64,000 nt of DNA from an uncultured delta proteobacterium (GCA_963771175.1 CAVYSY010000035.1:35482-99481), one strand, 5' to 3'; positions 6,688 to 29,600 are shown, numbered from the stretch's first letter. The notes: generated from the letters alone by a model not told the origin. Program-made: numbers and translations.

Positions 6688-7704
6688 TCAGGCCGCGAGC
6701 CTGACCGCCGCCTCGAACTCGGGGCGCTTGATGTTCGCGAGCGCCTCGTTCAGCCGGCTGCGGCCGTAGTCCACCCGGCCCTGCCAGGTCTCCAGCACGA
6801 ACTCGCCCGTCGACAGGCCCTGGTGCAGCTTGGCCAGCGGGGGGACGGCCAGGTCGGGTAGCCGGACGCCCGGCCGTTCGGCCGCGGCACCATTCAGGAA
6901 GCTCATCGCGTAGAAGACGTGGTTGAGCTGCCGCATCAGGAACATGCGGGCCTGCCGCGCCGCATCCGGCGTCTCGCCGAAGTAGGTGCGCAACAGCATG
7001 GCCTCCTCCTCCGCATTGGCGGTGAAGAAGTTGGCCAGGGTCGCCAGGTCCACATAGCGGTCGGCGAGAAACGAGGACTCCCAGTCGATCAGCCACAGCC
7101 GGCCCCCGTCATAGAGGACATTGCGTGGGTTCAAATCGTTGTGGCTGGAGACCGGATCCGGTCGCAGACGGCGGTATGCAGCGGCGAGCTCGGAGTAACG
7201 CGCGAAATGCTCCGCCGTGGCGGCCGGCTCGATCAGGCCCGAGGCGCGGAACTGTCCGATCAGCGCCTCCATGCCATCCAGATAGTCGACCAGCCGCGGA
7301 AAGGCCGGGGTTGCGTGCAAGGCGCGCACGGCCTGGGCCAGTTCGGTGACCCTGTCGCTCCTCGAGCCGGCATACTCCAGTGAGAGCGATCGCTCAGCGA
7401 TGAAGTCCATGATCGCCACCCCGTCCTCGACGCAGGCGTAATGCACCTTCGGCGCCACGCCCGCCTCGGCCGCGGTGCGCATGCAGCCGTACCAGCGGCT
7501 GGGGTTGCGGAAGAAGTCGCTCTGGCCCTCGATCCGCAGCAGATAGGCGATGCCACCCACCCGGATCTTGAACACCCGAGCGCCGGACAGGCCGCCGGTG
7601 AGCGATGTCGCCGCGTCCAGCGTCGTCGTGCCGAACGCGGCCTCGAGGGCGCGCTCGACCGCGCGACGGTTGGCTTCGGGAAAGGGCGTTTCGGGAAAGG
7701 ACAT
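6688..7704 (-). CDS. Aminoglycoside phosphotransferase / choline kinase-like protein
   Basis: LTGGLSG, HNDLNPRN (Brenner motif), LIDWE, DLA. Confidence 0.88.
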   Translation of the reverse strand: MSFPETPFPEANRRAVERALEAAFGTTTLDAATSLTGGLSGARVFKIRVGGIAYLLRIEGQSDFFRNPSRWYGCMRTAAEAGVAPKVHYACVEDGVAIMDFIAERSLSLEYAGSRSDRVTELAQAVRALHATPAFPRLVDYLDGMEALIGQFRASGLIEPAATAEHFARYSELAAAYRRLRPDPVSSHNDLNPRNVLYDGGRLWLIDWESSFLADRYVDLATLANFFTANAEEEAMLLRTYFGETPDAARQARMFLMRQLNHVFYAMSFLNGAAAERPGVRLPDLAVPPLAKLHQGLSTGEFVLETWQGRVDYGRSRLNEALANIKRPEFEAAVRLAA

Positions 7705-7728
7705 GGTGGCGCTCCTGGTGAGGCGCGC

Positions 7729-7773
7729 ATTTTACCCGGGTATAATTCGGAGACAATATCTCCCGGGTAAAAT
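7729..7773 (-). promoter_or_regulatory. Sigma70-like promoter overlapped by operator-like palindromes
   Basis: Minus strand TTGTCT-16-TAAAAT upstream of the kinase; perfect 12-bp inverted repeat ATTTTACCCGGG (7729-7740) / CCCGGGTAAAAT (7762-7773). Confidence 0.6.
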
Positions 7774-7797
7774 TATTCCCGTTCACCACGAGCCGCT

Positions 7798-8802
7798 TCA
7801 GGCCTGGGCTCGTACGTCGCGGTAACGGACCATCCGCTGCTGAGCGGAGTCCCAGAGGTTCAGACGCAGGCACCTCACCACCTCGCGCGGGTGCAGGGTC
7901 GTGACGTGGGGCCCCTGCAGCTCCGGAATCGCGGCCATGGCCTCGGGCAGGCGGTAGAAGGGGATGCGTGGGTTCAGGTGGTGGACGTGGTGGTAGCCGA
8001 TGTTGCCGGTGAACCAGGCCATCACGGGGCCACAGGCCAGGAAGCTCGAGGCTTCGAGCGCCGCCTCGGCGTGGGTCCACTGCTCCTCCGGGAGGAGCGA
8101 GACATCCTGGAAGTTGTGCTGCGCGTAGAAGAGATAGGTGCCCAGCGCGTAGCCCACGAAGAGCGGCCCGAGGAAGGCGGAGAGATAGACGCCTGGGCCG
8201 AAGAGCCTCCAGATCGTGATGGACAACGCGATGTGGACGAGCAGCGCGAGCCCCGAGGCCCAGTACCGCCGAGGGTTGCGAACGAACGGAACGAGGCAGA
8301 GGCTCACCAGGAAGGCCGTGAGATAGCCGAACAGCAGGGTCAGCGGGTGGCGCTCGACGACGTAGGCGAGGCGCTCCCGGCCGGAGGCCCCGCGCCACGT
8401 GTCGGTGGTCCACGTGATGAAGGTGCCTGCCGAGGGGGCGGCCAGGCGCGCGGTGTTGGCGTGGTGGTGGTTGTGGGTGTCGTTCCAGATGCGGGCGGGG
8501 GTGAGCATCAGCACGCCCTGGATGTGGAAGAGCACCTGCGCCAGGCGCGAGCTCCCCAGCAGGGCTCCGTGCATGAAGTCGTGGTAGAGGATGAAGGCGC
8601 GGACGAGGACGAGCGCCTCGACGAGCCCACCCACGACTCTCAGGGGCCACCACGGTGCGGCGGCCGCGACGGCGACGGCGGCGACCATCGCGACCAGTGT
8701 CGAGGCGATATGCCACCTGGCGCGTGCGGCATCCTGTATGGCGAAGGGCCGCGTTCGGGAGATGAGGTCTCTGCTCGCGAGTTGCTGCGCCGTTCGTGCC
8801 AT
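7798..8802 (-). CDS. Membrane fatty acid desaturase
   Basis: His boxes HDFMH, HNHHH, HHVHH; NIGYHHVHHLNPRIPFY; TM segments. Confidence 0.93.
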   Translation of the reverse strand: MARTAQQLASRDLISRTRPFAIQDAARARWHIASTLVAMVAAVAVAAAAPWWPLRVVGGLVEALVLVRAFILYHDFMHGALLGSSRLAQVLFHIQGVLMLTPARIWNDTHNHHHANTARLAAPSAGTFITWTTDTWRGASGRERLAYVVERHPLTLLFGYLTAFLVSLCLVPFVRNPRRYWASGLALLVHIALSITIWRLFGPGVYLSAFLGPLFVGYALGTYLFYAQHNFQDVSLLPEEQWTHAEAALEASSFLACGPVMAWFTGNIGYHHVHHLNPRIPFYRLPEAMAAIPELQGPHVTTLHPREVVRCLRLNLWDSAQQRMVRYRDVRAQA

Positions 8803-11834: not shown

Positions 11835-13877
11835 TCACGTAAAACGCGAGAAAGCCGAATCTGCGGAGCGGGCGAGCCGGCTCCGCGCCTCCTCGAGCGT
11901 CCCCGCGTCGAGCAGCACCGCCGCCTTCTCCTGCGCGGAGAGCGGCTCCGGTGGGCCCGCCAGCAGCTTGCGGCGCGCCGAGGCGAGCACGAGGGGCGCC
12001 ACGGCGGTGCCCGGCTGGGACTCCAACAGCGCCAGGTGCAGCGCGTGCGCCCGCGCGTCCGTCAGCACCCGCTCCAGTCCGTCCTCCACCGGCTCCAGCT
12101 CCCGCTCCGCCAGCTCGAGTGCCCGGGCCAGCACGGGCGGGGGCGCCGACTCCTCGGGGATGAGGAACAGTCCATGCCGTGCCGCCCACGTCCCCACTGA
12201 CGCTCGCGCGGTCCACACCGACAGCGGGATGGACAGCAGCAGCCCCGCCACCACCGGCGTCAGCCACAGCAGCAATCCCGGAGACAGGAAGAGCGCCACG
12301 GCCGCCAGCACCGCTCCCACCAGCGTGTGCACCGCATGGCGCCGCGCCGCCTCTGTCCACGGCAGGTCCTCGTCATCGCGCTGTTGGCTCGTCCAGGACA
12401 CCCGGTAGCCGAGCAGCGTCCCGAAGACGAAGTGCGACTGGAAGAGCATCATCACCGGCGCCTGCAGCATGGAGAGCACGCTCTCCGCCAGCACGCTCAG
12501 CACCAGCCGCGTCCGGCCTCCCATGTGCGCCGAGTCCTCCCTCCGCGTCAGCGCCAGCGCGAGCCCGAGGGCCTTGGGCAGCAGCAGCATGGACAGGGAC
12601 ACCGTCATCAGCCGCAGCGCGCCCTCCGTGTCGAAGGTGGGCCATGGCGAGGTGGGGTGCTCCATGAAGGACTCCGGCCCCATGAAGCGGTCGTGCAGCG
12701 CCGCCACCAGTCCCATGACCAGGAAGAGCAGCCAGAGCGGCGAGGCCACGTAGGACATCACTCCCATGAGGAAGTGCGCCCGGCTCGACGGATGCAGCCC
12801 GCCGGCCAGCACCAGCCGCAGGTGCTGGAGGTTGCCCTGGCACCAGCGCCGGTCCCGCTGCGCGTAGGCCAGCAGGTGGGGCGGGGGCTGCTCGTAGCTG
12901 CCGCCCAATTCCGGCACCAGCCACACCGTGTACCCCGAGCGCCGCATCAGCGCCGCCTCCACGAAGTCGTGGCTGAGGATGTGGCCGCCGAAGGGTTGCT
13001 GCCCCGGCAGCACCGGCAGTCCGCAGTGCTCGGTGAAGGCCTCCACGCGCAGGATGGCGTTGTGTCCCCAGTAGTTGGACTCGCCGAGCTGCCAGGCCGC
13101 CGCGCCCGTGGCCACCACCGGCCCGTACACCCGGCCGGCGAACTGCTGCAGGCGCGCGAAGAGCGTGGCGCGTCCCACGCACTGTGGCGGGGACTGGAGG
13201 ATGCCCACTCGCGGGTTCAGCTCCATCAGCCGCGCCATCCGCACCAGCGTGTCGCCCGACATGAGGCTGTCGGCATCCAGCACCACCATGAAGTGGTAGC
13301 CGCGCCCCCAGCGCTCACAGAAGTCGGCCAGGTTGCCCGCCTTCTTGCCCGTGTTGTCCGAGCGACGCCGGTAGAAGATGCGCCCCTGTCCGCCCACGCG
13401 CCGGCACAGGTCCTCCCACGCCAGCTCCTCGGCCACCCACGCCTCCACCCGCGTGGAGTCGCTCAGCACGTAGAAGTCGAAGGCGTCCAGACGCCCCGTG
13501 GCCGCCAACGACTCGTAGGTGGCCTGCACGTTCGCGAAGACCGAGGCCGGGTCCTCGTTGTGGATGGGCATCACCACGGCGATGCGGCTCGTCAGCGGGG
13601 CCGCCGCCTCCGCCGCGTCCGGCCACCGCAGGCCCGGTAGCCGCCCGCCGAGCGCGAGCTGGAGGAAGCCCGCCACCGCCGTCCAGAAGGACAGGGCAAT
13701 CCAGGCGAAGCACAGGGCGAAGAGGCCCATCAGCACCAGCTCGGGCGCGGTGGTGCCCTGGACACTCAACAGCCGGTGCATCTCCCACGTGCCGAGCACG
13801 GTGCAGAGGGCGGCCGGACCGAGGACACACCACCGCCGACGCCCGGCGGTCTCGGGCGAGAAGGAATGCGCGTGCAT
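11835..13877 (-). CDS. opgH: Periplasmic glucan biosynthesis glucosyltransferase H
   Basis: MPIHNEDP, YRRR..NTGKKAGN, VLDADSLM, NYWGHNAI, LSHDFVEA, RDRRWCQGNLQH. Confidence 0.95.
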   Translation of the reverse strand: MHAHSFSPETAGRRRWCVLGPAALCTVLGTWEMHRLLSVQGTTAPELVLMGLFALCFAWIALSFWTAVAGFLQLALGGRLPGLRWPDAAEAAAPLTSRIAVVMPIHNEDPASVFANVQATYESLAATGRLDAFDFYVLSDSTRVEAWVAEELAWEDLCRRVGGQGRIFYRRRSDNTGKKAGNLADFCERWGRGYHFMVVLDADSLMSGDTLVRMARLMELNPRVGILQSPPQCVGRATLFARLQQFAGRVYGPVVATGAAAWQLGESNYWGHNAILRVEAFTEHCGLPVLPGQQPFGGHILSHDFVEAALMRRSGYTVWLVPELGGSYEQPPPHLLAYAQRDRRWCQGNLQHLRLVLAGGLHPSSRAHFLMGVMSYVASPLWLLFLVMGLVAALHDRFMGPESFMEHPTSPWPTFDTEGALRLMTVSLSMLLLPKALGLALALTRREDSAHMGGRTRLVLSVLAESVLSMLQAPVMMLFQSHFVFGTLLGYRVSWTSQQRDDEDLPWTEAARRHAVHTLVGAVLAAVALFLSPGLLLWLTPVVAGLLLSIPLSVWTARASVGTWAARHGLFLIPEESAPPPVLARALELAERELEPVEDGLERVLTDARAHALHLALLESQPGTAVAPLVLASARRKLLAGPPEPLSAQEKAAVLLDAGTLEEARSRLARSADSAFSRFT

Positions 13878-13891
13878 GGGGGCTCCGTGCC

Positions 13892-14395
13892 TCAGCTCGA
13901 GATGGACACGTCTGGCTGGCCCGACCTCCACCAGCGACGGAAGAGCTCGCCCAGCGGCGACAGCACCAGTTGCTGCTCGGGCATCGTCGTGGGATTCGCC
14001 ATCGGCACGGGGACGGGCACCGAGGCGCGCAGGGCCCGCGTGAAGTCCGCCGACAGTGCGCCCGGCCCGGCCGTGAGGACCACCGCGCCCCACCGCGCCC
14101 CCTCGCACAACACGAAGGCCGCGCGACCCCGGGCCAGCAGCGAGCCACCACCCGTGTGCGCCGGGCCGAGCGCCTCGGCCAGCCAGTCCTCCATCCGCGC
14201 TCGGGCGAGGGCCACGGCTTCCCGCGACTCGGCGCAGCGCCCGCCGAGCACCCACTCCGCCAACCGGGAGAGCTCTCCGTCCGTGGTGAAGCCGAAGGAC
14301 CGGAAGAAGGTGTCGAGCGCCGCGCGAGTCTCCTCGGTAACCGTGGGGACGGGCGGGAGGGCAGGGGAGGAGAGCGGCATCTTCACGGCATCCAC
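13892..14395 (-). CDS. Hypothetical protein between opgG and opgH
   Basis: ORF fills the gap, overlaps the opgG stop and ends 14 nt before opgH; start GTG 14395 or ATG 14380. Confidence 0.65.
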   Translation of the reverse strand: MDAVKMPLSSPALPPVPTVTEETRAALDTFFRSFGFTTDGELSRLAEWVLGGRCAESREAVALARARMEDWLAEALGPAHTGGGSLLARGRAAFVLCEGARWGAVVLTAGPGALSADFTRALRASVPVPVPMANPTTMPEQQLVLSPLGELFRRWWRSGQPDVSISS

Positions 14396-15888
14396 AGGTA
14401 ACTCCATGTCTCGGTGAGGGATTCGGAACCGCGGCGGAGGAAGCAGCGCAGCTCGGCGGGGGTGCCCGCGTGCGGCACCAGCTCGAAGGTGACCCGCCAG
14501 CCGCCGGTGACGTCGTTGCGCTGCGCGATGGGGTGGAGCACCTGGCCCGTCGAAGTGGTGACGACCGCCTCCACCGGGCCCTCGCCCTCCGAGCCTCCGC
14601 GCGAGAACTCGAGGACGAAGCGCCGGGCCTCCGCCGTGCTGCCCGCGGCGACGCGCGTGGCGGTGGTGACGGCCACGGTGGGGCGCTCGGGTGGCTCGTG
14701 GCCCCAGTGCAGTCTCCAGGCGAGGCGCAGCTCGGTGCCGGGACGGAAGGGCGTCGCGGGCTCCCAGAAGGCCACGATGTTGTCGTGCACCTCCTGCGGG
14801 GTGGGAATCTCCACCAACCGCACCGTGCCCCGGCCCCAGTCGCCCACCGGCTCCACCCAGACGCCGGGGCGCCGGTCGTAGCGTGCCTCCAGGTCCTCGT
14901 AGCTGGAGAAGGCCTGATCCCGCTGCAGCAGGCCGAAGGTGCGCAGGCCCTCCACCTGGAAGCTGGAGACGCTCAGACGGGTGGGGTTCCGCAGCGGGCG
15001 CCACAGTTGCTCGCCGCTCTTCATCCACAGGAAGAGGCCGTCCGAGTCATGCACCTCGGGCCGGAAGTCGTCGTAGGTGCCCCGGTCGTTCTCCCCGAAG
15101 AGGTACATGCTGGTGAGCGGCGCCACCCCCAGCCGCTTCACCGCCTTGCGCGCGTACAGCGTCGCCTCCACCTCCACCACCGTGCGCTCCCCGGGGATGA
15201 TGACGAAGCGGTACGCGCCCGCGACGCTCGGGCTGTCCAGCAGCGCATGCACCACGACGCGCTCCGCGCCGGGCGCCGGCCTCTCCAGCCAGAACTCCCG
15301 GAACGAGGGGAACTCCTCTCCCTCGGGGAGCGCCGTGTCGATGGCCAGCCCGCGCGCGGACAGCCCGTACACGTTGCGGCGGCCCAGGGCGCGGAAGTAG
15401 CTGGCCCCCAGGAAGGACACCACCTCGTCGAAGTGGTCCGGCCGGTTGAGCGGGTGGGTGAGCCGGAAGCCCGCGAAACCATCCACCCGCGAGGGCGGCG
15501 GCGCCTTCACGAGGGAGCCGTACTCGAAGAGGTCCGGCGAGAAGCGCACCGTCTCCACCCGTCCGCCGGCCACCTCGTGCACGGTGATGGGCGAGGTGTA
15601 GAGGAAGCCCGGATGGAAGAACTGCACCTGGAAGGGCAGGCCGGCGTCGCGCCACCACGCCCGCTCCCGGCGGTAGCGGATGTCCCGGTACTGGTCGTAC
15701 GAGAGCTGCGCGAAGGCGGGGGGCAGTGTCGCCGTCGGGGCCTGGTAGCGGCGGACCGCCAGCTCGCGAGCCCGCTCCCTTACGAGGTCGGCCGTGGTCT
15801 TCGGCGCGGCTCCCGCGACCATCGCCCACAACACCCCGAGGGCGCACACCCAGTGCGCCCTCCGCACAGCCAGATTCCTCGACTCCAC
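14383..15888 (-). CDS. opgG: Periplasmic glucan biosynthesis protein G
   Basis: YDQYRDIR, FLGASYFRALG, YGLSARGLAIDT, EEFPSFREFW, APLTSMY, RPEVHDSDGL, DNIVAFW, ETWSY. Confidence 0.95.
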   Translation of the reverse strand: MESRNLAVRRAHWVCALGVLWAMVAGAAPKTTADLVRERARELAVRRYQAPTATLPPAFAQLSYDQYRDIRYRRERAWWRDAGLPFQVQFFHPGFLYTSPITVHEVAGGRVETVRFSPDLFEYGSLVKAPPPSRVDGFAGFRLTHPLNRPDHFDEVVSFLGASYFRALGRRNVYGLSARGLAIDTALPEGEEFPSFREFWLERPAPGAERVVVHALLDSPSVAGAYRFVIIPGERTVVEVEATLYARKAVKRLGVAPLTSMYLFGENDRGTYDDFRPEVHDSDGLFLWMKSGEQLWRPLRNPTRLSVSSFQVEGLRTFGLLQRDQAFSSYEDLEARYDRRPGVWVEPVGDWGRGTVRLVEIPTPQEVHDNIVAFWEPATPFRPGTELRLAWRLHWGHEPPERPTVAVTTATRVAAGSTAEARRFVLEFSRGGSEGEGPVEAVVTTSTGQVLHPIAQRNDVTGGWRVTFELVPHAGTPAELRCFLRRGSESLTETWSYLWMP

Positions 15889-15987: not shown

Positions 15988-16152
15988 CTCGAGCCGGGTG
16001 CTCCGGGGAGGTGCGCGAACGTGAAGGTGTGGAGCAGAGGGACAGTGGAGGCGGCGGCGTTGTCCCTCTTCTCCACAGGCGGCTCGCGGGGAGCCGGGGA
16101 GGGCGCCCGCGAAGCAAGGACCCCGAGTGCAGGTGCAATGCGAATGCGAGTC

Positions 16153-17945
16153 TCAGCCCGCGTGCTTCGCCGGCTCGACGGAGGGTGGGGGCTCGCGGAA
16201 CTGCCGCTGATACAGCTCCGCGTACAGGCCGTTGCGAGCCATCAACTCCTCGTGCGTGCCGCGCTCCGTGATGCGCCCGGCGTCGATGACGAGGATGAGG
16301 TCCGCGTTCCGGATGGTGCTGAGCCGGTGCGCGATGACCACGCTGGTCCGGCCCGCGAGCAGGGTGGTGAGCGCGCGTTGGATGAGGGCCTCGGTCCGCG
16401 TGTCGATGTTCGCCGTCGCCTCGTCGAGGATGAGCACGCGCGGCTCGGCGATGACCGCCCGGGCGAACGCGAGGAGTTGCCGCTGCCCCTGGCTCAGCGT
16501 GGCGCCGCTCTCGCCGAGCACCGAGTCGTAGCCCTTCGGCAGCGCGGCGATGAAGTCATGCGCATGGACCGCGCGCGCGGCCTGCTCGAGCTCCTCTCGA
16601 CTCGCGCCCGGCCGGCCGTAGCCGATGTTCTCCGCGATGGTGCCGGAGAACAGGAACGGCTCCTGGAGGACCGTCGCCATCTGCCGCCGCAGGCTCGCCC
16701 GCGTCACGCGCTTCACGTCCTCGCCATCGAGTCGCACCACCCCGGCCGTCGCGTCGTAGAAGCGGGGAATGAGGTTGGCCACGGTGGTCTTCCCCGCGCC
16801 CGTGCGGCCCACCAGCGCCACCGTCTGGCCGGGCGCGATCTCGAAGCTCAGGTCATGGAGCACCGGGTGCGAGGCGTCATAGGCGAATGACACCTTCTCG
16901 AACGTGATGCGCCCCTCGGCCCTCCCAGGGAGCGCGCCTCCGGGGCGTCGGCGGGCTCGCGTGCCTCGTCGAGGATGGAATAGATGCGCTCCGCGCCAGC
17001 GAGCGCCGACTGCATCAGCGTGTACACCGAGGCCGCGAGCTGCACGGGCCGGAAGAACTGCTGCGTGTAGATGAGGAACGCCGCCAGCAGGCCCACGCTC
17101 AGTTGCTCCTGGAGCACCAGGTGGCCGCCGTAGCCGATGACGAGCGCCGTGGCGAGTGTGGCGAGCACGTCGATGGCCGGGGAGAACGCGGAGGTGATGC
17201 CCACCGCGGCCACGTTGGCGTCGCGGTTGGCGGCGTTGCGATCCCGGAAGCGCCGGATGTTCTCGTCGGTGCGGTTGAAGGCCTGGGCCTGCCGCACGCC
17301 GACGATCTCCTCCTGCAGCTCCGCCGTCACATTGCCCACCGTCTGCCGCGTCTTGCGGTAGGCGTTTCGAGCGCGGGCGGCGAAGAACCCGGTGGTGAGC
17401 AGCATCACCGGAATGATGGTGAAGCACGCCAGCGCGAGGCGGACGTTGAGCGCGAGCATCGCCACCAGCACGCCCACCAGCCCCAGCATCGACCCCAGGA
17501 GTTGCGTCATCCCATGAGCGAAGAACTGGTTGAGCGTGTCGACGTCGCTGAGCAGGCGGCTCATCAGATCGCCGATCGGCCGCTTGTCGAAGTACGAGAG
17601 TGGCAGGGCCTGGAGCTGCTCGAAGAGCCGGGTGCGGATCGACGCGAGCACCTTCTGGCCGGACGCGCCCACGCGCCGCGTCTGCTCCCGCCCGGCCACC
17701 GCGCCCGCGCCGTAGACGACGAGCAGCAGCAGCATGGTGCGCAGCAGACCCGTCGGGTCTTCTCCTCCGATGTCGTGGTCGATGGCCCGGCTCACCAGAT
17801 ATGGCCCCGCGGCCTGCGCCAGCGCGCTGACGAGGATGAACACCCCGGCCATGAGCAGCGTGGCGCGGTGGGGCCACAGCTCGGCCAGCAGCCGGCGTGC
17901 CACCGCGCCACGACGGGCGGCGCGCTGCACCTCCAGCTCCGCCAT
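16153..17945 (-). CDS. ABC exporter, fused TMD-NBD subunit 2 (frameshift near 16925)
   Basis: TMD in ORF 16848-17972; NBD with GRTGAGKT, LSQGQRQ, ILDEATANID, IAHRLST. Confidence 0.88.
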
Positions 17946-17968
17946 CGCCTCGATTCCTCCGTGCCTCC

Positions 17969-19754
17969 TCACGCTGCCTCCTCCGTTCCGGGCTGCAACT
18001 GCGAGCCGAGGATCTCGTTGTAGAGCGGGCTCGAGGCGAGGAGCTGCTCATGGTTGCCCTGCGCCACCACCTTTCCCTCGTCGAGCACGAGGATGAGGTC
18101 CGCGTCCCTCACCGTGCTGATCCGCTGGGCGATGACGAGAGCGGTGCGGTGCGCGCCGCGCATCAGCCGATCGAGCGCGTCCTGGATGGCGGACTCGGTC
18201 TCGGCGTCCACCGCCGAGGTGCTGTCGTCGAGGATGAGCAGGCGTGGAGCCGTGAGCAGCGCCCGGGCGATGGCCATGCGCTGGCGCTGGCCACCCGACA
18301 GCCCGACGCCGCGCTCGCCGACCACCGTGTCGTAGCCCTGGGGCAGCCCGGCGATGAACTCGTCCGCCTGGGCCGCCTCGGCCGCCGCCTCGACCTGCTC
18401 CAGCGTCGCCTCCGGGCGGCCGTAGGCGATGTTCTCTCGCATCGTCCCGGAGAAGAGCAGGGCGTCCTGCAGCACCATGCCGATCTGCGAGCGAAGGCTC
18501 TAGAGCGTCACGTCGCGCACGTCGTGCCCGTCCAGGAGCACCGCGCCACCGGTCACGTCGTAGAAGCGGGGGATGAGGTTGATGATCGTGCTCTTGCCGG
18601 AGCCGGTCGTGCCGAGGATGGCCACGATCTGTCCCGGCTCGGCCACGAAGCTGACCCCGCGGAGGATCTCCCTGTCGCTGCCCGCGTAGCGGAAGCGCAC
18701 GTCGCGAAGCTCGACCCGTCCCTGGACGGGCGGCAGCACCTGGGCGCCGGGCTTGTCGGCCACCTCCGCCTCGGCGTCGAGCACCTCGAAGACGCGCAGC
18801 GCGGACGCTCCGGCGCGGGAGATCTTCGCCGCGATGAAGCCCAGCGTCATGAGCGGCATGAGCAGGAAGCCCAGGTAGGTGTTGAAGGCGACCAGCTCGC
18901 CGAGGGTCAACTCGTGGCGGACGATGAGCAGTCCGCCGAACCCCACCACCACGAGCGTGCCGAGGTTGGCGAAGAAGTTCACGAACGGGAAGTTGGTGGA
19001 GATGGCGTCGATGATCTGGAGGTTCTGCTCCAGCAGCTCGTCGTTGATCTTCGTAGCGCGGCGGCCTCGCGTGCCTCGCCGGCGAACGCGTTCACCACGC
19101 GGATTCCGCGCAGATTCTCCTGGAGGACTGCGTTGAGGCGGCCGAGCTAGCCCTGCACCCCGCCGAACAGCGGGCCGATCTTGCGGACGAAGAGCCGGAG
19201 CAACCCGAGGATGGGGACGATGGATGCCAGCGCCGCCAGGGCGAGCACCGGTTCATGCTGAAGAGCAGGGCCGCGCAGCCCACCAGCATCACGAAGGAGG
19301 CCGCGAGCTGGACCACGCCGGAGCCGACGAAGGTGCGCACCTGCTCGACGTCGTTGGTGAGCCGGGTCATGAGCTGGCCGGTCTGCGCCTGGTCGTGGTA
19401 GCTGAAGCTCAGCCGCTGGATGCGCGCGAAGAGCGCGTCGCGCAGGTCGAAGGCGACGCCCTGGGAGACGCGCTCGGCCAGGTAGCCCTGGAGGAAGTTG
19501 AAGAGCCCGCGTCCCAGCGCGATGGCCACCAGTCCGCCCACGGCCGCGAGCACCGTGGCGTTGCTGCCCCGGGCGATGCCGCCGTCGATGGCCAGCCGCA
19601 CCATCTGGGGCGCGGCGAGGTTGGCGGCCGATACCAGCAGGAGGGACACCAGCGCGCCCGCCGTCTCCAGCTTGTAGCGTCGCAGATATCCGAGCGCCCG
19701 CCGGACCGCCTTCCCACCGCCCGCCGGAGCCTCTGGTCTTCGTCCTGGTCCCAT
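17969..19754 (-). CDS. ABC exporter, fused TMD-NBD subunit 1 (indels near 19255, 19150, 19055, 18500)
   Basis: TMD pieces plus GTTGSGKS, LSGGQRQR, degenerate ILDDSTSAVD and IAQR, typical of the non-consensus subunit of heterodimeric exporters. Confidence 0.85.
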
Positions 19755-19867
19755 TCCCGGACAGACCTATCCAAGCGCGCCCCAATCCGCAACGTCCGGA
19801 CGGAGCTCGCGTTCCAGGCCCTCCGGGGCGAAGCACTCAGCCTGGGAGGGCGCGAAGAAGTCCCGGG

Positions 19868-20523
<656 letters not shown>

Positions 20524-20537
<14 letters not shown>

Positions 20538-22206
20538 CGCGGAGCTCCTGGGTGTTGTCCACCGCGGTCCGGGCGGACTGGCGCAGCAGGGCGAAATCGT
20601 AAGGGTGGTTTTCCAGCAGCCGCTCGATGAGCGATCGTCCCCGGGGGGTGGGGGCCAGGGAACCCAGGCTCTTCACCGTGGCCGCGGGCCAGGTGTCCGC
20701 CAGCGCCGTGCGCAACTTCCACGCCGTGGCCCCCTCCATTCCCTCGAAGGACTCCAGGGCTTCCTCGCACTGGACGCCGAAGGACTCGCGCAAGGCCCAG
20801 GCCCGGGGGCTGTCCAGTCCGGCCAGGGTGCCGAGGACCGCTCGGGGCGCTCGCGCGACGTGCTGCTCGCGCAGCTCCCAGGCGCGTTCGCTGTCGAGAC
20901 CCTCCAATGAGCGCAGCACGGCATCCGGTGCCGTCTCCCAGGCGCGCTGGCGCCAGACCCAGGCCAGCTCGCTGTCGAGCCCTCGGATGGCGCGGCAGGC
21001 GACGCGCGCCACCCGCTCCAGGCAGAGCGCTGCTTCTCCGCCCATGTCCGAGAGCCAGCGGGTCCGCACGCTCCACGCCTGCTCCCCCTCGAGCCCCGCG
21101 ACGGAGGTGGCCACCTGCTCGGCGGCGGAGAAGTAGAGGCGCTCGCGCATCTTCCACGCCCTCTCCGAGTCGAGCCCGTCGAGCGAGTCCGCGACGGCCG
21201 CGGGCGCCCGGGTCTCCCACCGCTCCCGGAGCTCCCACGCCTCCGGAGCCTCCGCGGCCAGGTTCTTCAACGAGCCGAGCACCTGCACCGGAGCGGCCTC
21301 CTCCAACTGCTTCCGCAGGGCCCACGCGTTCTCGTCCGTGAGCCCGGACAGCCCGTAGGCGATCAGCTCGGGGCACCGGGAGGCCAGGCGCTTCCGCCGC
21401 TCGTCGATGTCCGCACCTTCCAGGCCGGAGAGGAACCACGCGGCGAGCTGCGGCTCCTCATCCATCCAGCGATCCAGCCGCCCGAGGAACCGGCCTCGCG
21501 CCTCCGCCAGTGAGCGGATGGGCGTGGCCGGACGCATGCGCGGGGGAGGCAACGAGGGGGCCTCGCCGCGCTTCGCCCGCAGTACCTCCTGGACCAGACG
21601 GGCCACGAGCTCGTCGAGTGTCACGTCCGCGTTCTCGATGACGCTCCAGCGGTCGGGGGACTCCGCGGCCAGGGCCCGGTAGCCCGCGCGCAGTCGCGCC
21701 TGCAGTCCCGTCCCCGTCAGTCCCTTCCGGGACGGAGTGTCCTGCGGCGGCGCCAGCAGCTTCGAGACGCGGCGGCGGGCCCGCGCGATCGCCGGGTCCA
21801 CGTCGATGAGGAACACCCGATCCGGCTGAAGCCCCCGGGCACAGGCGGCCAGCACCGGCCGTACCTCGTGCTCCGTGAGACCTCGTCCCCAGCGGGCGAG
21901 CACCTCCGCGGTGTAGAGGAAGCGGTCGGCGATGACGATCTCATGCTCCGCGAGCGCCGGGCGCGTCACCTCTTCCAGGAGCTGCGTCTCTCGCGCGGCG
22001 TAGAGCAGCAGCTCGGCCATGGGCGTGAGCGCGAGGTTGATGGGATTCCGAGTGAAGCGCCGCAGCCCCTCGGACACGGGGGATGCCAGCTTGCCGTCCT
22101 CGCGGACGTGACGCACGCGGAGCCCCGCCCGGCGCAGCTCGCGCGCCACGCGGTTGGACAGCGTCGTCTTGCCCGAGCCGTCGATTCCTTCAAAGACAAT
22201 CAGCAT
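20524..22206 (-). CDS. Thymidylate-kinase-like domain fused to about ten ~27-aa helical repeats
   Basis: MLIVFEGIDGSGKTT, ELLLYAAR, IADRF; then repeats of SL.GLDSERAW.LRE. Confidence 0.85.
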
Positions 22207-23387
22207 TAGAAGCTCACCTCCATCTGCAGCAACATCGCCCGTCTCGGGACGAGGGTTTTTTCGAGGGAACGGACCTCCTCGGGGACGGACTCCTCGGTCT
22301 GGCGGACTTCCGCCTGTGCCTGGAGCCGCCAACGCCCCCTCTGTCCAAAGTTGAGTCCGCCCGCTCCTTCCCAGAGCAGGTCCTTCTGGTTCTTCAGATC
22401 CGGATCGAGCGCCGAGAGCATCACGAAGGGCTCCACGTACAGCCCGCCCTTCTTGCCACCCCCGATGCGCCAGGCCGTCAGCGCGCGCGCCATGAGCAGC
22501 GGTCCCTCGGTGCTCACCAGGAGCTCATTGCGCCCCACGAGCACCTCGGCCCAGGTGCGCAGCTCTCCCTGCCCGATCGGCAGCGCATGCTTCGCGTCGA
22601 ACCCGGCCGTCCAGTTGGACCACGTGCCGTCCGTGCTCGAGGGTTTCGCCTGCATGGACGCGCCCAGCTCGAGCGAGTCCAACACCCCCCATGTTCCCCG
22701 GAGGGTCGGGACGAGACCGAGCCCCTTGTTCAGGTCGACCTTCTCGTCGGGGTCGGTCTGCCAGACTCCGGCCTGGAACTTCAGCGACCGCTCACAGGCC
22801 GTGCACTTCCACTCGAGCTGAGCGCCGATCTGACGGCCGGTGAGTCCCAGTGCGTCATTCAAGACATCACGGCCCAGGCCCCGGCGGACGAGCGGGAGAC
22901 TCGTCGTGGACTCGAGCTCTATCAGCGAGAGGGGCACCTTGAACTGGCCCGCCCTCACGGCCAGGCCCTTGGGGAGGTTCAGCCAGACAAAGGCATCCTT
23001 CAGTCCATCCTGGACATCGAACTCCACCACGGCCCGCAGGCGCTTCTTCCAGCGGTAGGTGATCTCCAGGCGCGCGGCGGGGATGGAGAGCTTTCCGGCC
23101 AGGGCTTCCTCGCCCTTGGCGTCGATCGCCTCGCGGACGGAGAACCGGCCCCCCACCTCCACCGAGCCGAACGCGGTGGGGAGCTTGAGCGCCCCCGAGT
23201 CCTCCTCGGGAGGGGAGGGAGGTGGCTCGGGAGCCTGGGTCACTTCCGGAGCCGCTGTCGTTTCCGGGGCCTCCGGCGCGGCGGGGTCCTGGGCCACGGC
23301 GGAGGAGGACACGAGGAGCATCGTGGCGAGGGTGAGCCACCCGGCGGATGGAGCCTTGCGGGTGGGGGAGGGATGAGGGGGGCGCAC
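22206..23387 (-). CDS. Outer-membrane porin, OprO/OprP phosphate-selective porin-like
   Basis: Signal peptide, LKDAFV..VRAGQFKVPLS..E motif, alternating beta strands, terminal Phe; TAATG overlap with next gene. Confidence 0.75.
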   Translation of the reverse strand: MRPPHPSPTRKAPSAGWLTLATMLLVSSSAVAQDPAAPEAPETTAAPEVTQAPEPPPSPPEEDSGALKLPTAFGSVEVGGRFSVREAIDAKGEEALAGKLSIPAARLEITYRWKKRLRAVVEFDVQDGLKDAFVWLNLPKGLAVRAGQFKVPLSLIELESTTSLPLVRRGLGRDVLNDALGLTGRQIGAQLEWKCTACERSLKFQAGVWQTDPDEKVDLNKGLGLVPTLRGTWGVLDSLELGASMQAKPSSTDGTWSNWTAGFDAKHALPIGQGELRTWAEVLVGRNELLVSTEGPLLMARALTAWRIGGGKKGGLYVEPFVMLSALDPDLKNQKDLLWEGAGGLNFGQRGRWRLQAQAEVRQTEESVPEEVRSLEKTLVPRRAMLLQMEVSF

Positions 23388-23407
23388 GGTGTGGAATTCC
23401 TCGGGAA

Positions 23408-24178
23408 TCACTGCGTGGAGCGCATGCCGGCGAGGCGGATGCGCATGCCTTGTTCGAACTTCGAGCCGCGGGTCTCGAAGGGCTCCAGCATCCAGAGCAA
23501 CCACTCCAGCCAGGAGGGGGCGCTCCCCCGCCACTTCACCTCCAGCAGCGTGGCGGGCGGGGCATGGTCGAGCAGCCGGGAGGGAGTCGCTGGCCCCGTC
23601 CCTATCCGCTCCGGAGGGAGCGCGAAGACGAGCCCCTCGTCCAGGGTGATGCGGACACTGGAGTCGGGAGTGGCGAGCGTGCTGCGCCGGTACCAGGCCG
23701 TCACCCACGGCTTCACCGGCGCGGAGGCGGCCTGCCGCAGGAGCGTGGTCACCGCGCTCTGCTCGGGCAGGGCCGCACCCGAGAGCAGCGCCTCCGCTTC
23801 GTTTGCCGAGACGGGGAGGCGGACCTTCGTGCGTCGCTCGCCGGTATTCCGCTTCAGCTCGAGGAACCGCGTTCCGGACAGCACGGGCGGGACGGCGAGG
23901 TCCGCCGTTCCCGCGTACTCCCGCAGCCGCAGGCGTTGGGTGTGTCCGGCCCGGCATGAGCCCAGGAAGTCCAGTCCCTCGGTGTCGAGGTAGGTCGTCC
24001 GCGTGAAGGCGAACGGAAGACCGGAGTCATAGATGCGGGGCTCCGTCCAGGGCTGGAGGGTCCGCAGGACCGAGTCCAGGGACTCACGCGCGGGCTGGAA
24101 CCTCCTCTCCTGGTCTTGCTCCACCGAGGGGGTCGACAAGGACATGGTGACAGGGCTCATCCGGGCCGTGGGATTCAT
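23408..24178 (-). CDS. VTC / polyphosphate-polymerase-domain (CYTH-like) protein
   Basis: TTYLDT, RLRLREY, FLELKR, TKVR, WYRR, RITLD, LLEVK, SKF. Confidence 0.82.
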   Translation of the reverse strand: MNPTARMSPVTMSLSTPSVEQDQERRFQPARESLDSVLRTLQPWTEPRIYDSGLPFAFTRTTYLDTEGLDFLGSCRAGHTQRLRLREYAGTADLAVPPVLSGTRFLELKRNTGERRTKVRLPVSANEAEALLSGAALPEQSAVTTLLRQAASAPVKPWVTAWYRRSTLATPDSSVRITLDEGLVFALPPERIGTGPATPSRLLDHAPPATLLEVKWRGSAPSWLEWLLWMLEPFETRGSKFEQGMRIRLAGMRSTQ

Positions 24179-25789
24179 GGGGTGGTGCTGAAAGCTGCCT
24201 GGACCTCGCCCTGGCGCCTCGCGGCGAAGTTCAGCAGGCCGCTCGTGCCGGTGAGCGCGTCCTGGAACTCCTGGGCGCTGTTCAGGAAGGTGAAGCCCGG
24301 CTGCTCCGCGTTCTCACCCACCACATACGGGGCGATGAGTGCGTGCTCCGCGCTCAGGCGCTCCCGCAGGCTCTCCGGGGAGAGCGGACCCTGCACCACC
24401 TCCAGGGCATACTGCGCGTAGCTGGCCCGGTAGGTGGGGTCGTCGAGCAGGTAGCGGATGAGCGGCCAGGTCGCGTCCACGGTGCTCTGCGTCAGCGACG
24501 TCGCCCGCCCCATGCCGTCACCCATGGACCGGTCATGGTCCCAGGTAATCCAGTGCAGGCGCCCGCCATCCCCCGGGTGGGCATAGAGGTAGTAGTTGTG
24601 CGACATGGCCCCGTAGGTGTCCCAGTTCTGCAGCACCGCGTTGACCGCGAGCCACTTGAGGAAGCCAGGGACGTTCAGCTTCTCCTCGAGGCGCGCGCGC
24701 CAGGCCGCCGCGTCCGTGCGGTCCGAGTTGAGCGCGGCGATGGCCTCCTCCACGGGCGCCCAGTTGTTCTCCGCGGCCTTCGTCTCCGGCTCGAAGGAGG
24801 CCGAGTCGAAGGCCTGCCACCGGGCCCCCGTGCCATCCGCCTCGTAGAGCGCGCCGCTGTCGTCACCGAAGTTGCGGGTCGAGCAGCGAATCCTGCGGGT
24901 CCTCGGAGAGCGTGTAGAGGCCGAAGTACTGGGAGCCCTCTCCGTGGTCCACGTACAGGGCGACGAAGGAGGTGTAGCTGGTCGGCACTCCGGCCGCGCG
25001 GAAGATGTCCGTGGCCACCTTGTTGCGGATCAGCGACTTGTCGGCCACGGAGTTGGAGAGGGACAGCTTGTCGAAGCCGTAGAAGCGCTGGTCCTCGATC
25101 TCCGGGTGATCGTCCTCGAACTCGTCGAAGTTCAACCGCAGCGGCAGCTTGCCCACGCCGCTGCTCCACGCCTGCGCCAGCGAGGAGTTGCCCTTGAAGC
25201 GGATCCCCACGTACCACCAGGTCTTGCCCTCGAAGCGAACCGTCGAGGGCACGTACACCGGCGTGTTGGGGATGATGTCCCCGGCGCCGCCTCCACCCGG
25301 TGCGCCGCCTCCACCCGGTGCGCCGCCTCCACCCGGGCCGCCCGGGGGACGGCACAGGAGTTGCCCGTCCGGCGTGCTGCCGCAGGTGCTGGTGAAGGCA
25401 GTGCCCTGGATGGTGGCGCTGCAGGAGTCACCCGCCGCCTTGCCCTGGCAGGCCTCCACGAGCTCGGTGGGGAGCATCCCACCGCCGCCCGGGCCACCCG
25501 GCGGGACGCCACCATCGGTCGTCCCGCCGCCCGGGACTCCGCCCGTGCGCGAGCCGAACGCGCCCGCCATGGCGGTCATGTCGTCCTGCATCTTCTGCCA
25601 GTCCTCGGGCGCGATGGTCACGTCGAGCCGCAGCACCTTCCCCTCGGGAAAGACGACGTCATAGGCGGGGGTGGCGTCCTTCCCGTGCGTCGCCTCGGTC
25701 CATCCTTCGGGGCGATCGACGCCTCCACAGGCGGTGCTGAAGGTGAAGGCGAGTGCGGCGAGTGCTCCAAGACGCGGACTTCTTTGCAT
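24175..25789 (-). CDS. CotH-family kinase lipoprotein (frameshift near 24870)
   Basis: Lipobox FSTAC, GIRFKGNSSL, RLNFDEF, YFGLYTLSE, NWDTY..SHNYYLY, WDHDRS; ATGA overlap with VTC gene. Confidence 0.88.
25284..25337. repeat. Three 18-nt tandem repeats encoding PGGGGA linker
   Basis: GCGCCGCCTCCACCCGGT x3. Confidence 0.9.
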
Positions 25790-25882
25790 GGGGGTCCTCT
25801 CATCAGGGTGGCGGTGCTCCGCCGCCAGTGCGTGCTGCCGAGTCAGCACTGGCGCTGCGAGTTGGCACCCTGAGGGAGGTCC

Positions 25883-25909
25883 GTGACCCGTTCTTTACGC
25901 GTTTGTGAC
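25883..25909 (-). promoter_or_regulatory. Pho-box-like / OmpR-family direct repeat
   Basis: Minus strand GTCAC-N6-GTAAA-N6-GTCAC, 11-bp period, about 95 nt upstream of the CotH gene. Confidence 0.45.
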
Positions 25910-26029
25910 GAATTGTTTCGCGGCGAGTGGAGTGTCCACGAAGTCTTTGGACATAGTTGTGGGGGGACGAATCGCTCGGGTGGATGAGAAGTCCGACGGG
26001 AGTCCCTTCACCGGCCTCGCCGTGGCGTG

Positions 26030-26627: not shown

Positions 26628-29600
26628 ATGAAGCATTCATCGCGCCCTCTCACGTCCGTTGAAGTCCTCGCTTCCCTGATGGGTGTCCCTCCTTCGGAGC
26701 TTGAACGTCAATCGGGCGTCCTGCTCGGGAGCCTGGGGATGGATTCGCTGACGGCGACGCGCGTGCGTGGCTCCTCTCGAGCCCCATGCCTTCCTATCAG
26801 GTTCTCTATGGGCTGACCGTGGCCCAGGCGGCGGCCGCGATTCCCAGACTGGAAGAAATGGCGTCTTCCTTTCTCAGAAATGAATGCGAGGCCTCCGGGG
26901 GGGATGGGGCGTTCGAGCTGACGCCCATGCAGGTGTCCTATGTGATTGGCGCCAGCCAGGACTGTCCCTGTCAGGTCTACTCCGAATTCGACATCGAGGA
27001 ACTCGACGTCGCCTGTTTCGAGCAGGCCGTGCGCCGGGCCGTCGCGCGCCATCCCATGCTGCACGCGGTCATCGTCGAAGGCACCCGGCAGCGGGTCCTC
27101 CCCGAGTCCGAGCGCCGCGAGCCCGTGCGCCTCGAAGCGCTTGCGGTGGCGGACCTGGAGCAGCGGCGCCAGGAGTGCATGACGGCGTTCCGGTCCCGGC
27201 CCGACCTGCACTGGGACGTCCAGTTGAGCCGGCTGGACGCGCGCACCGTCCGCGTCCACCTCCTGCTGGACATGCTCTTCATGGACGCCACCAGCGCGAT
27301 GATCCTCTGCCGCGAGGTCGCCGGGCACTACCGCGACCTCGTGCGGCGGGGCTCCACCCCCGCGCCGTCGGGCCCCGGGCTGGCGTTCCGCGACTACTGC
27401 GACCAGCTGGGGACGAAGCAGATCTCCGCCGCGTCTCTCGACTACTGGACGGCGCGCCTGGATGCGATGCCCGCCCCGCCCCAGCTTCCGCGCCGCAAGA
27501 GCGCGGGGGGGCTGGGCGTGGACTTCCAGCGGGAGTCCATCGCGCTGGGGGCCGAACGCTGGAACGCGCTCAAGGCCCACGCCAGCGCGCTGCAGGTCAC
27601 CTCCAACGCCCTGCTGCTCGCCGTGTTCTCCGAGGTGCTCGGCTTCTACGCCGAGGAGCCCGACTTCTCGGTCACCGTCACCATGTCCGAGCGGCCGGTG
27701 GTGCGCGGCAACGACTTCACCGGCACGGTCGGCGAGTTCACCAACATCCTGCTGTGCCCCATCACGGGCCGTCACGCGGGCATCGCCGAGCGCGCCACCG
27801 CCATCCACCGCGAGCTCAGCCAGGGGCTCGAGCACAGCGACCTGAGCGGGTTGGAAGTGGTGCGCATGCTGCGCAAGCGCCGCGCGGATCCGCACCTCAG
27901 TTTCCCCATCGTCTTCACCTCCTTCCTCGGCATCGTCGACTCCTGCGTGGAGTTCGCCGGCTGCCGCACGAGTCTCCACTTCCAGCAGACGCAGACGCCG
28001 CAGATCTCCCTGGACCACCAGGTCTACGAAATCGACGGCGAGCTGCGGATCAACTGGGACTACGACAGCCACATCCATGACCGCGACCTGATGCGCGACA
28101 TGCTGTCCTGCTTCCAGCACCTGCTGGAGCGCGTGGCCACCGGCGACCTGAGTACCTCGACCCTGCCGCCCGAGGTGCTGGCGCTGCGCGTGGGCATGAA
28201 CCAGACCCACGTGGACCTGGACCCGCAGGCGCCGCGCCTGCTTCACGGGCTGGTGCTGCGGGCCGCGCAGGCGACGCCCGACGCCACGGCGGTCATCGAC
28301 CAGGACGTCCGGCTCTCCTACGCGGAGTTGGTGGCGCTGGCCCGCGCCGCAGCGGTCCGCTTGCAGGACGCGGGCGTCGTCCCGGGGGCCTGCGTGGCCG
28401 TCGTCATGGAGAAGGGGTGGGAGCAGGTCGTCGCCACGACCGCCATCCTGCTGACCGGCGCGTACTACCTCCCGCTAAACCCGAGCCACCCCGACGACCG
28501 GCTGCGCAGCATCATCGCCCTGGCGGGCTGTGAGATCGCGCTGGTCCAGGACAAGTGCGTGAGCGCCGACCGCCACTGGCACCGCGCGCACGAGGGCGGC
28601 GCCGGGACCCCCACCCTTCGCGTGGACCGCACCCTGGTGGGTGAGGTTGGCGGACGCGTTCCCACGCCCGTGCCAGGTGGACCCTGACGCCCTGGCCTAC
28701 GTCATCTTCACGTCCGGCTCGACCGGCGCGCCCAAGGGCGTCGAGATCGCGCATGGCCCCGCGGTCAACACCTGCCTGGACATCAACGCGCGTTTCGGGC
28801 TCGGGGCGCGGACCGTCACCTTCGCCATCTCGTCGCTCAGCTTCGACCTGTCCGTCTGGGACATCTTCGGAACGCTGGGCGCCGGTGGCACGGTGGTGGT
28901 CTGCAAGCCTGATGGGACGCGCGATCCGGACTACTGGTGGCAGCAGCTGCACCAGCACCAGGTGACGGTCTGGAACACCGTCCCGACCTCATTCGAGATG
29001 CTGATCGCCTCCCGTCCTCCGGGCGCGACGCTGCCGCTGGAGGTGGCGATGCTCAGCGGTGACGCCATCAGCATGACGATGGCCGACCACGCGCTGGCCC
29101 TGTTCCCGGACCTCCAGCTAGTGGCCCTGGGCGGCGCGACCGAAGCCTCCATCTGGTCCAACTTCCACATCATCACCCGCCAGTCGCGCGAGCTGGGGAC
29201 CGAGCTGGTTCCGTACGGGCGGCCGCTCTCCAACCAGACAATGCACGTGCTGGACTCGCGCTTCGAGTACCGGCCGGCCGGCGTCGTAGGCGACATCTAC
29301 ATCGGCGGTGTGGGCTTGGCGCGCGGCTACTTCCGCGACCCGGAGCTCACGGCCAGCAAGTTCATCACGGTCGCGCCGTACGGGCGGCTGTACGCAACAG
29401 GGGATCTGGGCCGCTATCTGCCCAACGGCGAGATCGAAATCGTCGGCCGCAAGGATTCGCAGGTGAAGGTCGGCGGCCACCGCGTGGAGTTGGCGGAGAT
29501 CGAGCACTGCGCGGAGCGGCTGCCGTCGGTGCAGCGGGCCGCCGTCGTTCACATCCCGGGGGAGAGTGCCCGGCTCGTCGGCTTCGTGACCGCCAGCGAA

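Follow-up and report, generated by a model that had tools for sequence, protein, structure and literature searches.

In a 64,000-nucleotide stretch of DNA from an uncultured delta proteobacterium (GCA_963771175.1, CAVYSY010000035.1:35482-99481; hereafter the window, with positions counted from its first letter), a CotH-family kinase lipoprotein, a VTC-domain protein, an OprO/OprP-like outer-membrane β-barrel, a fusion of a thymidylate kinase (Tmk)-derived P-loop kinase to an α-solenoid, and a DUF4956 inner-membrane protein are encoded side by side on the minus strand as a conserved unit of five genes. The Tmk fusion is not a housekeeping Tmk, and it is the steadiest companion of VTC in Myxococcota. 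We propose, with somewhat less than even confidence, that the five genes form an envelope-spanning phosphate-polymer module that makes polyphosphate (polyP) and moves the polymer, or phosphate, across the envelope. The window has a G+C content of ~70%. The source genome, that of a soil myxobacterium (9.8 Mb in 58 contigs), has an estimated completeness of 81.7%, and its near relatives carry the source names Archangium or Vitiosangium.

Pfam search of the minus strand of positions 16153-25789 yielded seven genes, all co-oriented. In the direction of transcription these are the gene for the CotH lipoprotein (24175-25789; Pfam CotH in two pieces of 80.1 and 110.4 bits), that for the 256-aa VTC protein (23408-24178; VTC, 64.9 bits versus a cut-off of 23), the porin gene (22206-23387; Porin_O_P, 28.9 bits, cut-off 20.9), that for the 560-aa Tmk fusion (20524-22206; Thymidylate_kin PF02223, 74.6 bits, and TIGR00041), that for the DUF4956 (MgtC-like) protein (19868-20537; DUF4956, 34.1 bits versus 30.6), and two genes for half-size ATP-binding cassette (ABC) exporters, ABC1 (17969-19754) and ABC2 (16153-17972), both matching ABC_membrane and ABC_tran. 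Packing is tight: CotH and VTC share an ATGA, 20 nt separate VTC from the GTG start of the porin gene, the porin and Tmk genes meet in a TAATG, and the Tmk and DUF4956 genes overlap by 14 nt. Beyond the DUF4956 stop (19868-19870) comes a 113-nt gap to ABC1, which is joined to ABC2 by a GTGA. The Pfam calls and inspection of the junctions thus bear out the initial annotation on the number and shared orientation of the genes, on the domains that they encode, and on the ATGA, TAATG and 14-nt overlaps. Conservation sets a narrower limit. In blastn, DNA identity of 80-82% with six congeners spans 19864-25918, covering a conserved region upstream of CotH (25790-25918) and ending at the other side exactly at the DUF4956 stop; the conserved unit is five genes (CotH, VTC, porin, Tmk fusion and DUF4956), not seven.

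The cytoplasmic Tmk fusion consists of a kinase domain (residues 1-215) and an α-solenoid of eight AWxxR repeats (residues 233-560), whose AWxxR words are spaced 27-38 residues apart. Its AlphaFold2 (AF2) model has a predicted local distance difference test score (pLDDT) of 88 and a predicted template modelling score (pTM) of 0.83. The N-terminal domain has the Tmk fold (5X7J, Z 21.6, root-mean-square deviation (rmsd) 1.8 Å over 180 residues), PPK2 reaching only Z ~10. For the solenoid, structural matches are only the generic HEAT/ARM-type ones (PSMD2, Z 11.5; importin-β, Z 9.3), in a range common for helical repeats, and an ESM Atlas search with it gave no usable match. The solenoid has 19 conserved basic positions versus 8 acidic ones, and the kinase domain has a pI of 10.1. 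The family comprises 882 members at E <= 1e-5 and, among the members listed, all source names are dTMP or thymidylate kinase, save for one NCBI "hypothetical protein"; they are so annotated because they score just above the cut-off of the dTMP-kinase equivalog TIGR00041. Five of five complete congeners, however, have a canonical, higher-scoring Tmk (129-133 bits) elsewhere in the genome, and the fusion is not the housekeeping enzyme. In the genome studied here the Thymidylate_kin matches are two fusions and a deoxynucleoside kinase (dNK, 141 bits) on contig C32 (L109:3924-4589); a canonical tmk was not found in this assembly, which is 81.7% complete.

The fusion also differs from ordinary Tmks at the acceptor site. 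Comparison of 47 ordinary Tmks with 19 fusions showed the P-loop, the DR motif and the lid Arg retained in the fusions, whereas an Arg column (94% in ordinary Tmks) has become Glu or Asp and an A-Y-Q-G block (100, 98, 100 and 85%, respectively) has become V-L-A-R. We take the replaced Arg and A-Y-Q-G columns to be those of the dTMP-binding site, and on this alignment the fusion has lost that site. The assignment of the dTMP-binding columns comes in part from the work on PPK3 (PMC12995831), where Tmk paralogs of Sulfolobus acidocaldarius that lack the dTMP site are reported to be polyphosphate kinases (PMC12995831, JBC 2026). As with PPK3, the fusion is a Tmk-fold paralog beside polyphosphate genes, with the canonical Tmk elsewhere, and it retains the ATP site but not the dTMP site. 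It differs in being the product of one gene, with a 330-aa solenoid, rather than a catalytic/regulatory pair, and in being closer to bacterial Tmks than to the PPK3 homolog 2PLR/5H70. A quick tree, which took in one congener Tmk-family sequence (L112) and no PPK3 sequences, placed the fusion kinase domains in one long-branched clade (SH-aLRT 100). The fusion is probably an exaptation independent of PPK3.

We examined the company kept by the fusion in 80 loci fetched with the family alignment, 30 of them with full-length fusions (all from Myxococcota records) and 50 with ordinary Tmks. By tblastn, VTC, porin, DUF4956 or CotH lies beside 25 of the 30 fusions as against none of the 50 ordinary Tmks, the fusion loci without partners being L038, L040 and L042 (short flanks) together with L045 and L048. 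VTC is present in 20 of the fusion loci (tblastn finding 19 and Pfam alone one more), DUF4956 in 15, the porin in 14 and CotH in five. In a sample of 301 Myxococcota genomes, 85 have the solenoid and 134 a VTC domain, and a Pfam VTC match lies within 6 kb on the same contig at 89 of 103 solenoid places (median distance 1.65 kb); five of the 14 places without VTC are in genomes without a listed VTC position and two are at contig ends. Leaving out one unpublished genome (G224), the tallies are 84/300 for the solenoid, 133/300 for VTC and 88/102 for adjacency. The initial annotation had called the Tmk-like kinase an unusual addition to the gene set, which these counts contradict: no other companion of VTC in Myxococcota is as steady. 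Full-length relatives of the fusion, with 65-83% identity, carry the source names Myxococcus, Corallococcus, Stigmatella, Cystobacter, Melittangium, Hyalangium and Pyxidicoccus.

A second, paralogous system occurs on contig C33 of the same genome (L108:7947-12347), with a porin-like gene, VTC, a Tmk fusion (40% identity) and DUF4956, and with no CotH found in it. Two open reading frames (ORFs) without a family match follow it (L108:12125-13078 and 13188-14150), and a purple-acid-phosphatase-like ORF lies 3 kb away (L108:15141-15881); NCBIfam has no model that matches the DUF4956 protein of this second system or its unassigned ORFs. The CotH-less type of system is present in all five complete congeners and the CotH-bearing type in two of them. 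Genes related to phosphate recur next to both the close and the more distant relatives of the cassette. Among congeners, genes for PhoU_div and a Pit-family (PHO4) transporter follow DUF4956, as a complete pair in L012 (13738-15425), as PhoU_div alone in L010 (6675-7298) and as remnants in L015 (13987-14660) and L011 (7100-7249), with nothing of the kind in L013 and L014; the genome under study retains a PhoU_div and Pit copy on contig C47. Further out in congeners come a DUF3616 gene and then an OmpR-type regulator with a HAMP histidine kinase. In more distant Myxococcota, a Na/Pi-cotransporter-family protein follows VTC and replaces DUF4956 in six of the 12 loci scanned (L035, L037, L039, L041, L043 and L051), and an unassigned ORF of ~250 aa often stands between the Tmk fusion and VTC (L035, L041 and L043). 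Neighbours of the fusion seen at single loci are PelG (L048:2-1696), Ppx-GppA (L041:6447-7481), and lamin-tail-domain and PPDK_N proteins (L049:3710-6309).

The VTC protein has no signal peptide, SPX domain or membrane domain, and VTC is the sole Pfam family found in it. A profile of 12 homologs matched the catalytic domain of Vtc4 (3G3Q) over profile positions 16-255 (E 6.3e-16), whereas a single-sequence search of PDB sequences returned chance matches only; no NCBIfam model matches the protein. In Vtc4, triphosphate and Mn2+ are bound by K200, R264, R266, K281, Y359, R361, E426, S457 and K458 (10.1101/2023.01.27.525886). Eight of these nine are identical here, R84, R86, K109, Y163, R165, E213, S239 and K240 aligning with R264, R266, K281, Y359, R361, E426, S457 and K458, respectively; the ninth, K200, is replaced by R26. 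Among those kept is K458, which is missing from the inactive Vtc2 and Vtc3 (10.1101/2023.01.27.525886). By these residues the protein is a Vtc4-like triphosphate-tunnel enzyme. The likeness to the eukaryotic VTC complex (yeast Vtc4/Vtc3/Vtc1; 3G3Q, 7YTJ, 8I6V) lies in the catalytic tunnel domain and in a membrane protein encoded alongside, as coupled synthesis and translocation would need. The bacterial protein, with its 256 aa and Arg in place of K200, differs in lacking an SPX domain and a membrane domain of its own, and its membrane partner is DUF4956/MgtC-like, or Na/Pi-cotransporter-like in relatives, and unrelated to the Vtc1-type helices. Relative to the eukaryotic complex, the cassette also adds an outer-membrane pore, a CotH kinase and a Tmk-derived kinase.

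The porin begins with GTG and has a signal peptide and a C-terminal Phe. Its Porin_O_P match, although above cut-off, spans only profile positions 28-152 of 370, no NCBIfam model matches it, and a profile search of PDB sequences had no match at either E 1 or E 10. Its AF2 model is a β-barrel (pLDDT 76.9), for which the best match among 48,161 chains was OprP (2O4V; Z 28.0, rmsd 2.9 Å, 303 residues aligned), followed by a chitoporin (Z 24.6); the top three in Foldseek were 4RJW, 4RJX and 2O4V, that is, OprO, an OprO mutant and OprP (E 2e-12). The modelled fold therefore fits OprO/OprP, the porins of Pseudomonas aeruginosa selective for phosphate and pyrophosphate (2O4V, 4RJW), best, although aligned identity is only 12-16% and the barrel has ~330 residues versus 411. 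Twelve homologs share six Arg and one Lys with little or no variation; for these there is no sequence-level alignment to the solved chains, whose pores are lined by an arginine ladder and a lysine cluster.

CotH starts at the ATG at 25789 and has a lipoprotein-type signal with a lipobox Cys and a Gly/Pro-rich linker. An intact ortholog (L011) matched the solved Bacillus spore-coat kinase CotH (5JD9) over 260 residues (E 2.1e-13), and the C-terminal piece in the window retains the QNxD and WDxD motifs, whose Asp residues are presumably catalytic and metal-binding. Likeness to the Bacillus kinase thus extends to the Pfam CotH domain and both motifs; the protein here differs in being a lipoprotein of a diderm that does not form endospores and in a Gly/Pro- and Cys-rich insert. 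In the contig of a public sequencing run, X1, the Gly/Pro-rich linker is shorter by 18 bases near 25284, so that linker length varies between strains. For DUF4956, the intact ortholog in L011 has 222 aa with hydrophobic stretches (in a hydropathy scan run from a wrong start residue); its printed sequence reads as four hydrophobic helices and a C-terminal soluble domain of ~80 aa. The DUF4956 protein also matches MgtC below the cut-off (25.2 bits).

On the prevailing view, PPK1 and PPK2 make the polyphosphate of bacteria, which stays in the cytoplasm. The five families of the cassette are spread over all compartments, with two enzymes in the cytoplasm, a protein in the inner membrane, a channel in the outer membrane and a lipoprotein, and their links to phosphate are strong because of the Vtc4-like active site, the OprO/OprP-like fold, and the PhoU_div/Pit, Na/Pi-cotransporter-like and Ppx neighbours. 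The envelope phosphate/polyphosphate system put forward in the initial annotation is to that extent upheld, as a tight and conserved five-gene unit, once the ABC pair is removed and the Tmk-like kinase is no longer regarded as an oddity. In the mechanism that we propose, the cytoplasmic VTC protein would take the γ-phosphate of ATP to build polyphosphate, working at the inner membrane with DUF4956 or, in some relatives, with the Na/Pi-cotransporter-like protein. From this inner-membrane partner the periplasm would receive either the polymer itself or phosphate that comes from it, and the OprO/OprP-like barrel would let phosphate, pyrophosphate or polyphosphate through the outer membrane. The Tmk-derived kinase-solenoid would be a dedicated cytoplasmic partner of VTC that has ceased to bind dTMP, most likely handling polyphosphate with ADP/ATP as PPK3 does, and the arginine-bearing repeats of its solenoid may hold the polymer. 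CotH would be an extracytoplasmic user of the phosphoryl supply. The original suggestion, that periplasmic CotH receives its phosphoryl donor from VTC and DUF4956, may hold where CotH is present, but CotH would be at most one optional client, since most myxobacterial versions lack it. In its boldest form, which we consider doubtful, the proposal is that the fusion is a new, independently evolved polyphosphate-handling kinase that docks on VTC, its kinase swapping phosphate between polyP and ADP/ATP while the solenoid arginines thread or measure the nascent chain; together with DUF4956, or the Na/Pi-cotransporter-like protein, and the OprO/P-type pore, it would make up the first described bacterial machine for polyP synthesis and delivery through both membranes.

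Several observations weigh against a module that makes and delivers polyphosphate. The K200 equivalent is Arg in the window VTC copy and in its orthologs, and K200A reduces polyP in yeast (10.1101/2023.01.27.525886). The fusion still passes TIGR00041 (88 versus 83.25 bits), and its kinase domain is nearer to canonical Tmks than to the PPK3 homolog 2PLR/5H70 both in profile (E 4e-26 versus 8.6e-9) and in fold (Z 21.6 versus 17.9). The PPK3 table lists two PPK1 and one PPK2 for Archangium gephyra but no PPK3 (PMC12995831); cytoplasmic polyphosphate therefore already has makers and, because of this entry and the proximity to bacterial Tmks, we read the fusion as PPK3-like in its working and not as a member of that family. 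By tblastn the porin was detected in only 14 of the 30 fusion loci and CotH in only five, with none found in the second system of the genome; two of the five cassette genes are out of frame in this assembly; and a channel role for DUF4956 is purely conjectural. Export and import are moreover indistinguishable, because a porin is passive, and the Pit, PhoU_div and Na/Pi-cotransporter neighbours fit uptake equally well. This last point makes phosphate uptake and storage a serious rival, albeit one that we think unlikely: the porin and inner-membrane protein would import phosphate or pyrophosphate under limitation, VTC would store it as cytoplasmic polyP, the Tmk-derived kinase would use this store, in the manner of PPK3, to remake ATP from ADP, and CotH would have a side function. 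OprO and OprP, the best structural matches to the porin, are phosphate-starvation uptake porins, and uptake would suit the PhoU_div and Pit (PHO4) genes that follow the cassette in congeners, the Na_Pi_cotrans gene in six of 12 loci scanned and the purple-acid-phosphatase-like ORF near the second system, as well as the preference of PPK3 for forming ATP from polyP (PMC12995831). Vtc4-type enzymes, however, polymerise from ATP and not from imported phosphate, so that uptake would not be coupled to synthesis, and the genus already has PPK1 and PPK2 (PMC12995831). Uptake would also leave unexplained the exported CotH and the link of VTC and DUF4956 to surface-polysaccharide loci, seen here in PelG at L048 and in the reported Gram-positive Pel loci (10.1101/768473). 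A quite improbable reading is that the VTC protein is a triphosphatase or a nucleotide-processing tunnel enzyme and that the cassette serves in signalling or regulation, the kinase-solenoid sensing nucleotides. Tunnel metalloenzymes have many reported activities, the K200 equivalent is Arg, and two-component genes flank the cassette in congeners; but the VTC profile matches Vtc4 specifically and over its full length, K458 is kept, which separates the active polymerase from Vtc2/Vtc3 (10.1101/2023.01.27.525886), and the phosphate transporters and phosphate-type porin alongside fit bulk phosphate chemistry better than signalling.

The remaining alternatives concern the extent and the integrity of the unit. 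The initial annotation had drawn all seven genes into one operon, with the heterodimeric ABC exporter as a working part that exports the cassette product. The ABC pair does lie on the same strand, only 113 nt away, and the two are joined in the X1 contig (87 differing letters over 6,200 bases), which passes from the cassette on to ABC1 and shows the adjacency to be genuine in this lineage; a distant locus, L038, also has an ABC exporter (6929-8731) just upstream of its Tmk fusion. Synteny with the six congeners nevertheless ends at 19864-19868, and an ortholog of ABC2 (81-84% identity) is found elsewhere in all five complete congeners, megabases or 300 kb from the cassette in G001, G006 and G008, and in G004 and G015, which have no cassette. 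In the contig of run X2, 19867 is joined to the word at window positions 16130-16151, just past the ABC2 stop, and the 3.7-kb ABC segment (window 16152-19866), missing there, hence varies among near relatives by insertion or deletion. The ABC pair came to adjoin the cassette through recent, lineage-specific insertion and is not a member of it; the gene-neighbourhood survey that had been suggested as a check thus found the five genes co-conserved, and syntenic in six congeners, but not the ABC pair, and the seven-gene operon, largely refuted by conservation, is most improbable. A second question is raised by six lesions in the region, one each in CotH, DUF4956 and ABC2 and three in ABC1, owing to which four of the seven genes, otherwise as first described in strand, domains and junctions, are not open in the assembly. 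CotH has one extra base near 24878 and DUF4956 one near 20111 relative to the six congeners, where the frames are intact; compared with intact orthologs from G001, ABC1 has frameshifts near 19255 and 19055 and an in-frame stop at 18500-18502, and ABC2 a single frameshift near 16920. If the CotH and DUF4956 frameshifts were genuine, the cassette would be decaying in this strain, in keeping with two of its five genes being out of frame, with the patchy presence of the CotH-bearing system in the genus (full-length orthologs in six of 17 congeners) and with the visible decay of PhoU_div and Pit beside the cassette in congeners. Yet the essential rpoB and rpoC of the same genome (C25:92475-100856) are broken at similar density, into three and four pieces, respectively, in differing frames, and the five cassette genes show no further damage. 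Contigs of four public runs from three studies, compared over 19700-25900, are 95-99% alike to the window, and hence come from relatives and not from the same data; each of the four is one base shorter at 20111/20112 and again at 24878/24880. Because rpoB and rpoC are also fragmented and both extra bases are left out in every run, the CotH, DUF4956 and ABC lesions are most likely assembly errors rather than signs of pseudogenes, and decay is very unlikely. Indel errors throughout the assembly would account for a completeness of only 81.7%.

Three of the five families have been seen together before. Genes for CotH, a "polyphosphate polymerase" and DUF4956, at times with DUF4832, occur as accessory genes in the Pel loci of Gram-positives, and the available parts of the reports ascribe no function to them (Whitfield et al., 10.1101/768473; for S. 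intermedius, 10.1101/2024.04.20.589940), where the DUF4956 protein is given four transmembrane segments and a C-terminal ACT-like domain (10.1101/768473; 10.1101/2024.04.20.589940). The same three families stand side by side here, and the DUF4956 ortholog looks similar in topology to the one described there. The cassette differs from the Gram-positive loci in its two-membrane form, which includes an OprO/P-like porin and a Tmk-solenoid fusion, in having no pel genes beside it in the window, and in that CotH is optional in Myxococcota. In the open-access literature, no paper was found that connects bacterial VTC genes with a protein like Tmk or with a porin of the OprO type; among the papers listed for Myxococcus and CotH, none deals with this gene set in its title or abstract and, among the papers listed for DUF4956, the Pel work is the only one that does. 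The CotH/VTC/DUF4956 triad is already known, though unexplained, and the version bearing the porin and the Tmk fusion is new.

If the proposed module is real, a yeast-type polymerase, an inner-membrane protein, a pore and an exported kinase would provide a route for energy-rich phosphate to the outside of the cell, where ATP is absent. The myxobacterial version offers a testable handle on it, namely a Tmk-derived enzyme that appears to lack the dTMP site and is almost always beside VTC, at a time when archaeal Tmk paralogs have newly been reported as polyphosphate kinases (PMC12995831). Should a tractable member of the genera named above for relatives of the fusion carry the system, it could readily be studied by knock-outs and enzyme assays. 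The annotation "dTMP kinase" on hundreds of fusion proteins is corrected by the present result.

Upstream of CotH, two GTCAC(A/G) words 22 nt apart (~25880-25912) are invariant in all seven aligned loci, those of the window and of six congeners. The pair is a candidate regulator-binding site which, to our eyes, resembles Pho-box-like direct repeats. A scan for consensus promoters and terminators, uninformative at 70% G+C, detected no promoter, and its single terminator-like site is on the wrong strand. Genes for MdoG (652 bits) and an MdoH-like family-2 glycosyltransferase (window 11835-15888) follow downstream of the ABC pair; MdoG sits elsewhere in congeners. On the other side of the cassette, and divergent from it, lies a hybrid non-ribosomal peptide synthetase (NRPS)-polyketide synthase cluster (window 26786-48274), in which the first adenylation domain of the NRPS is split across two frames near 28650, likely by one more assembly frameshift.

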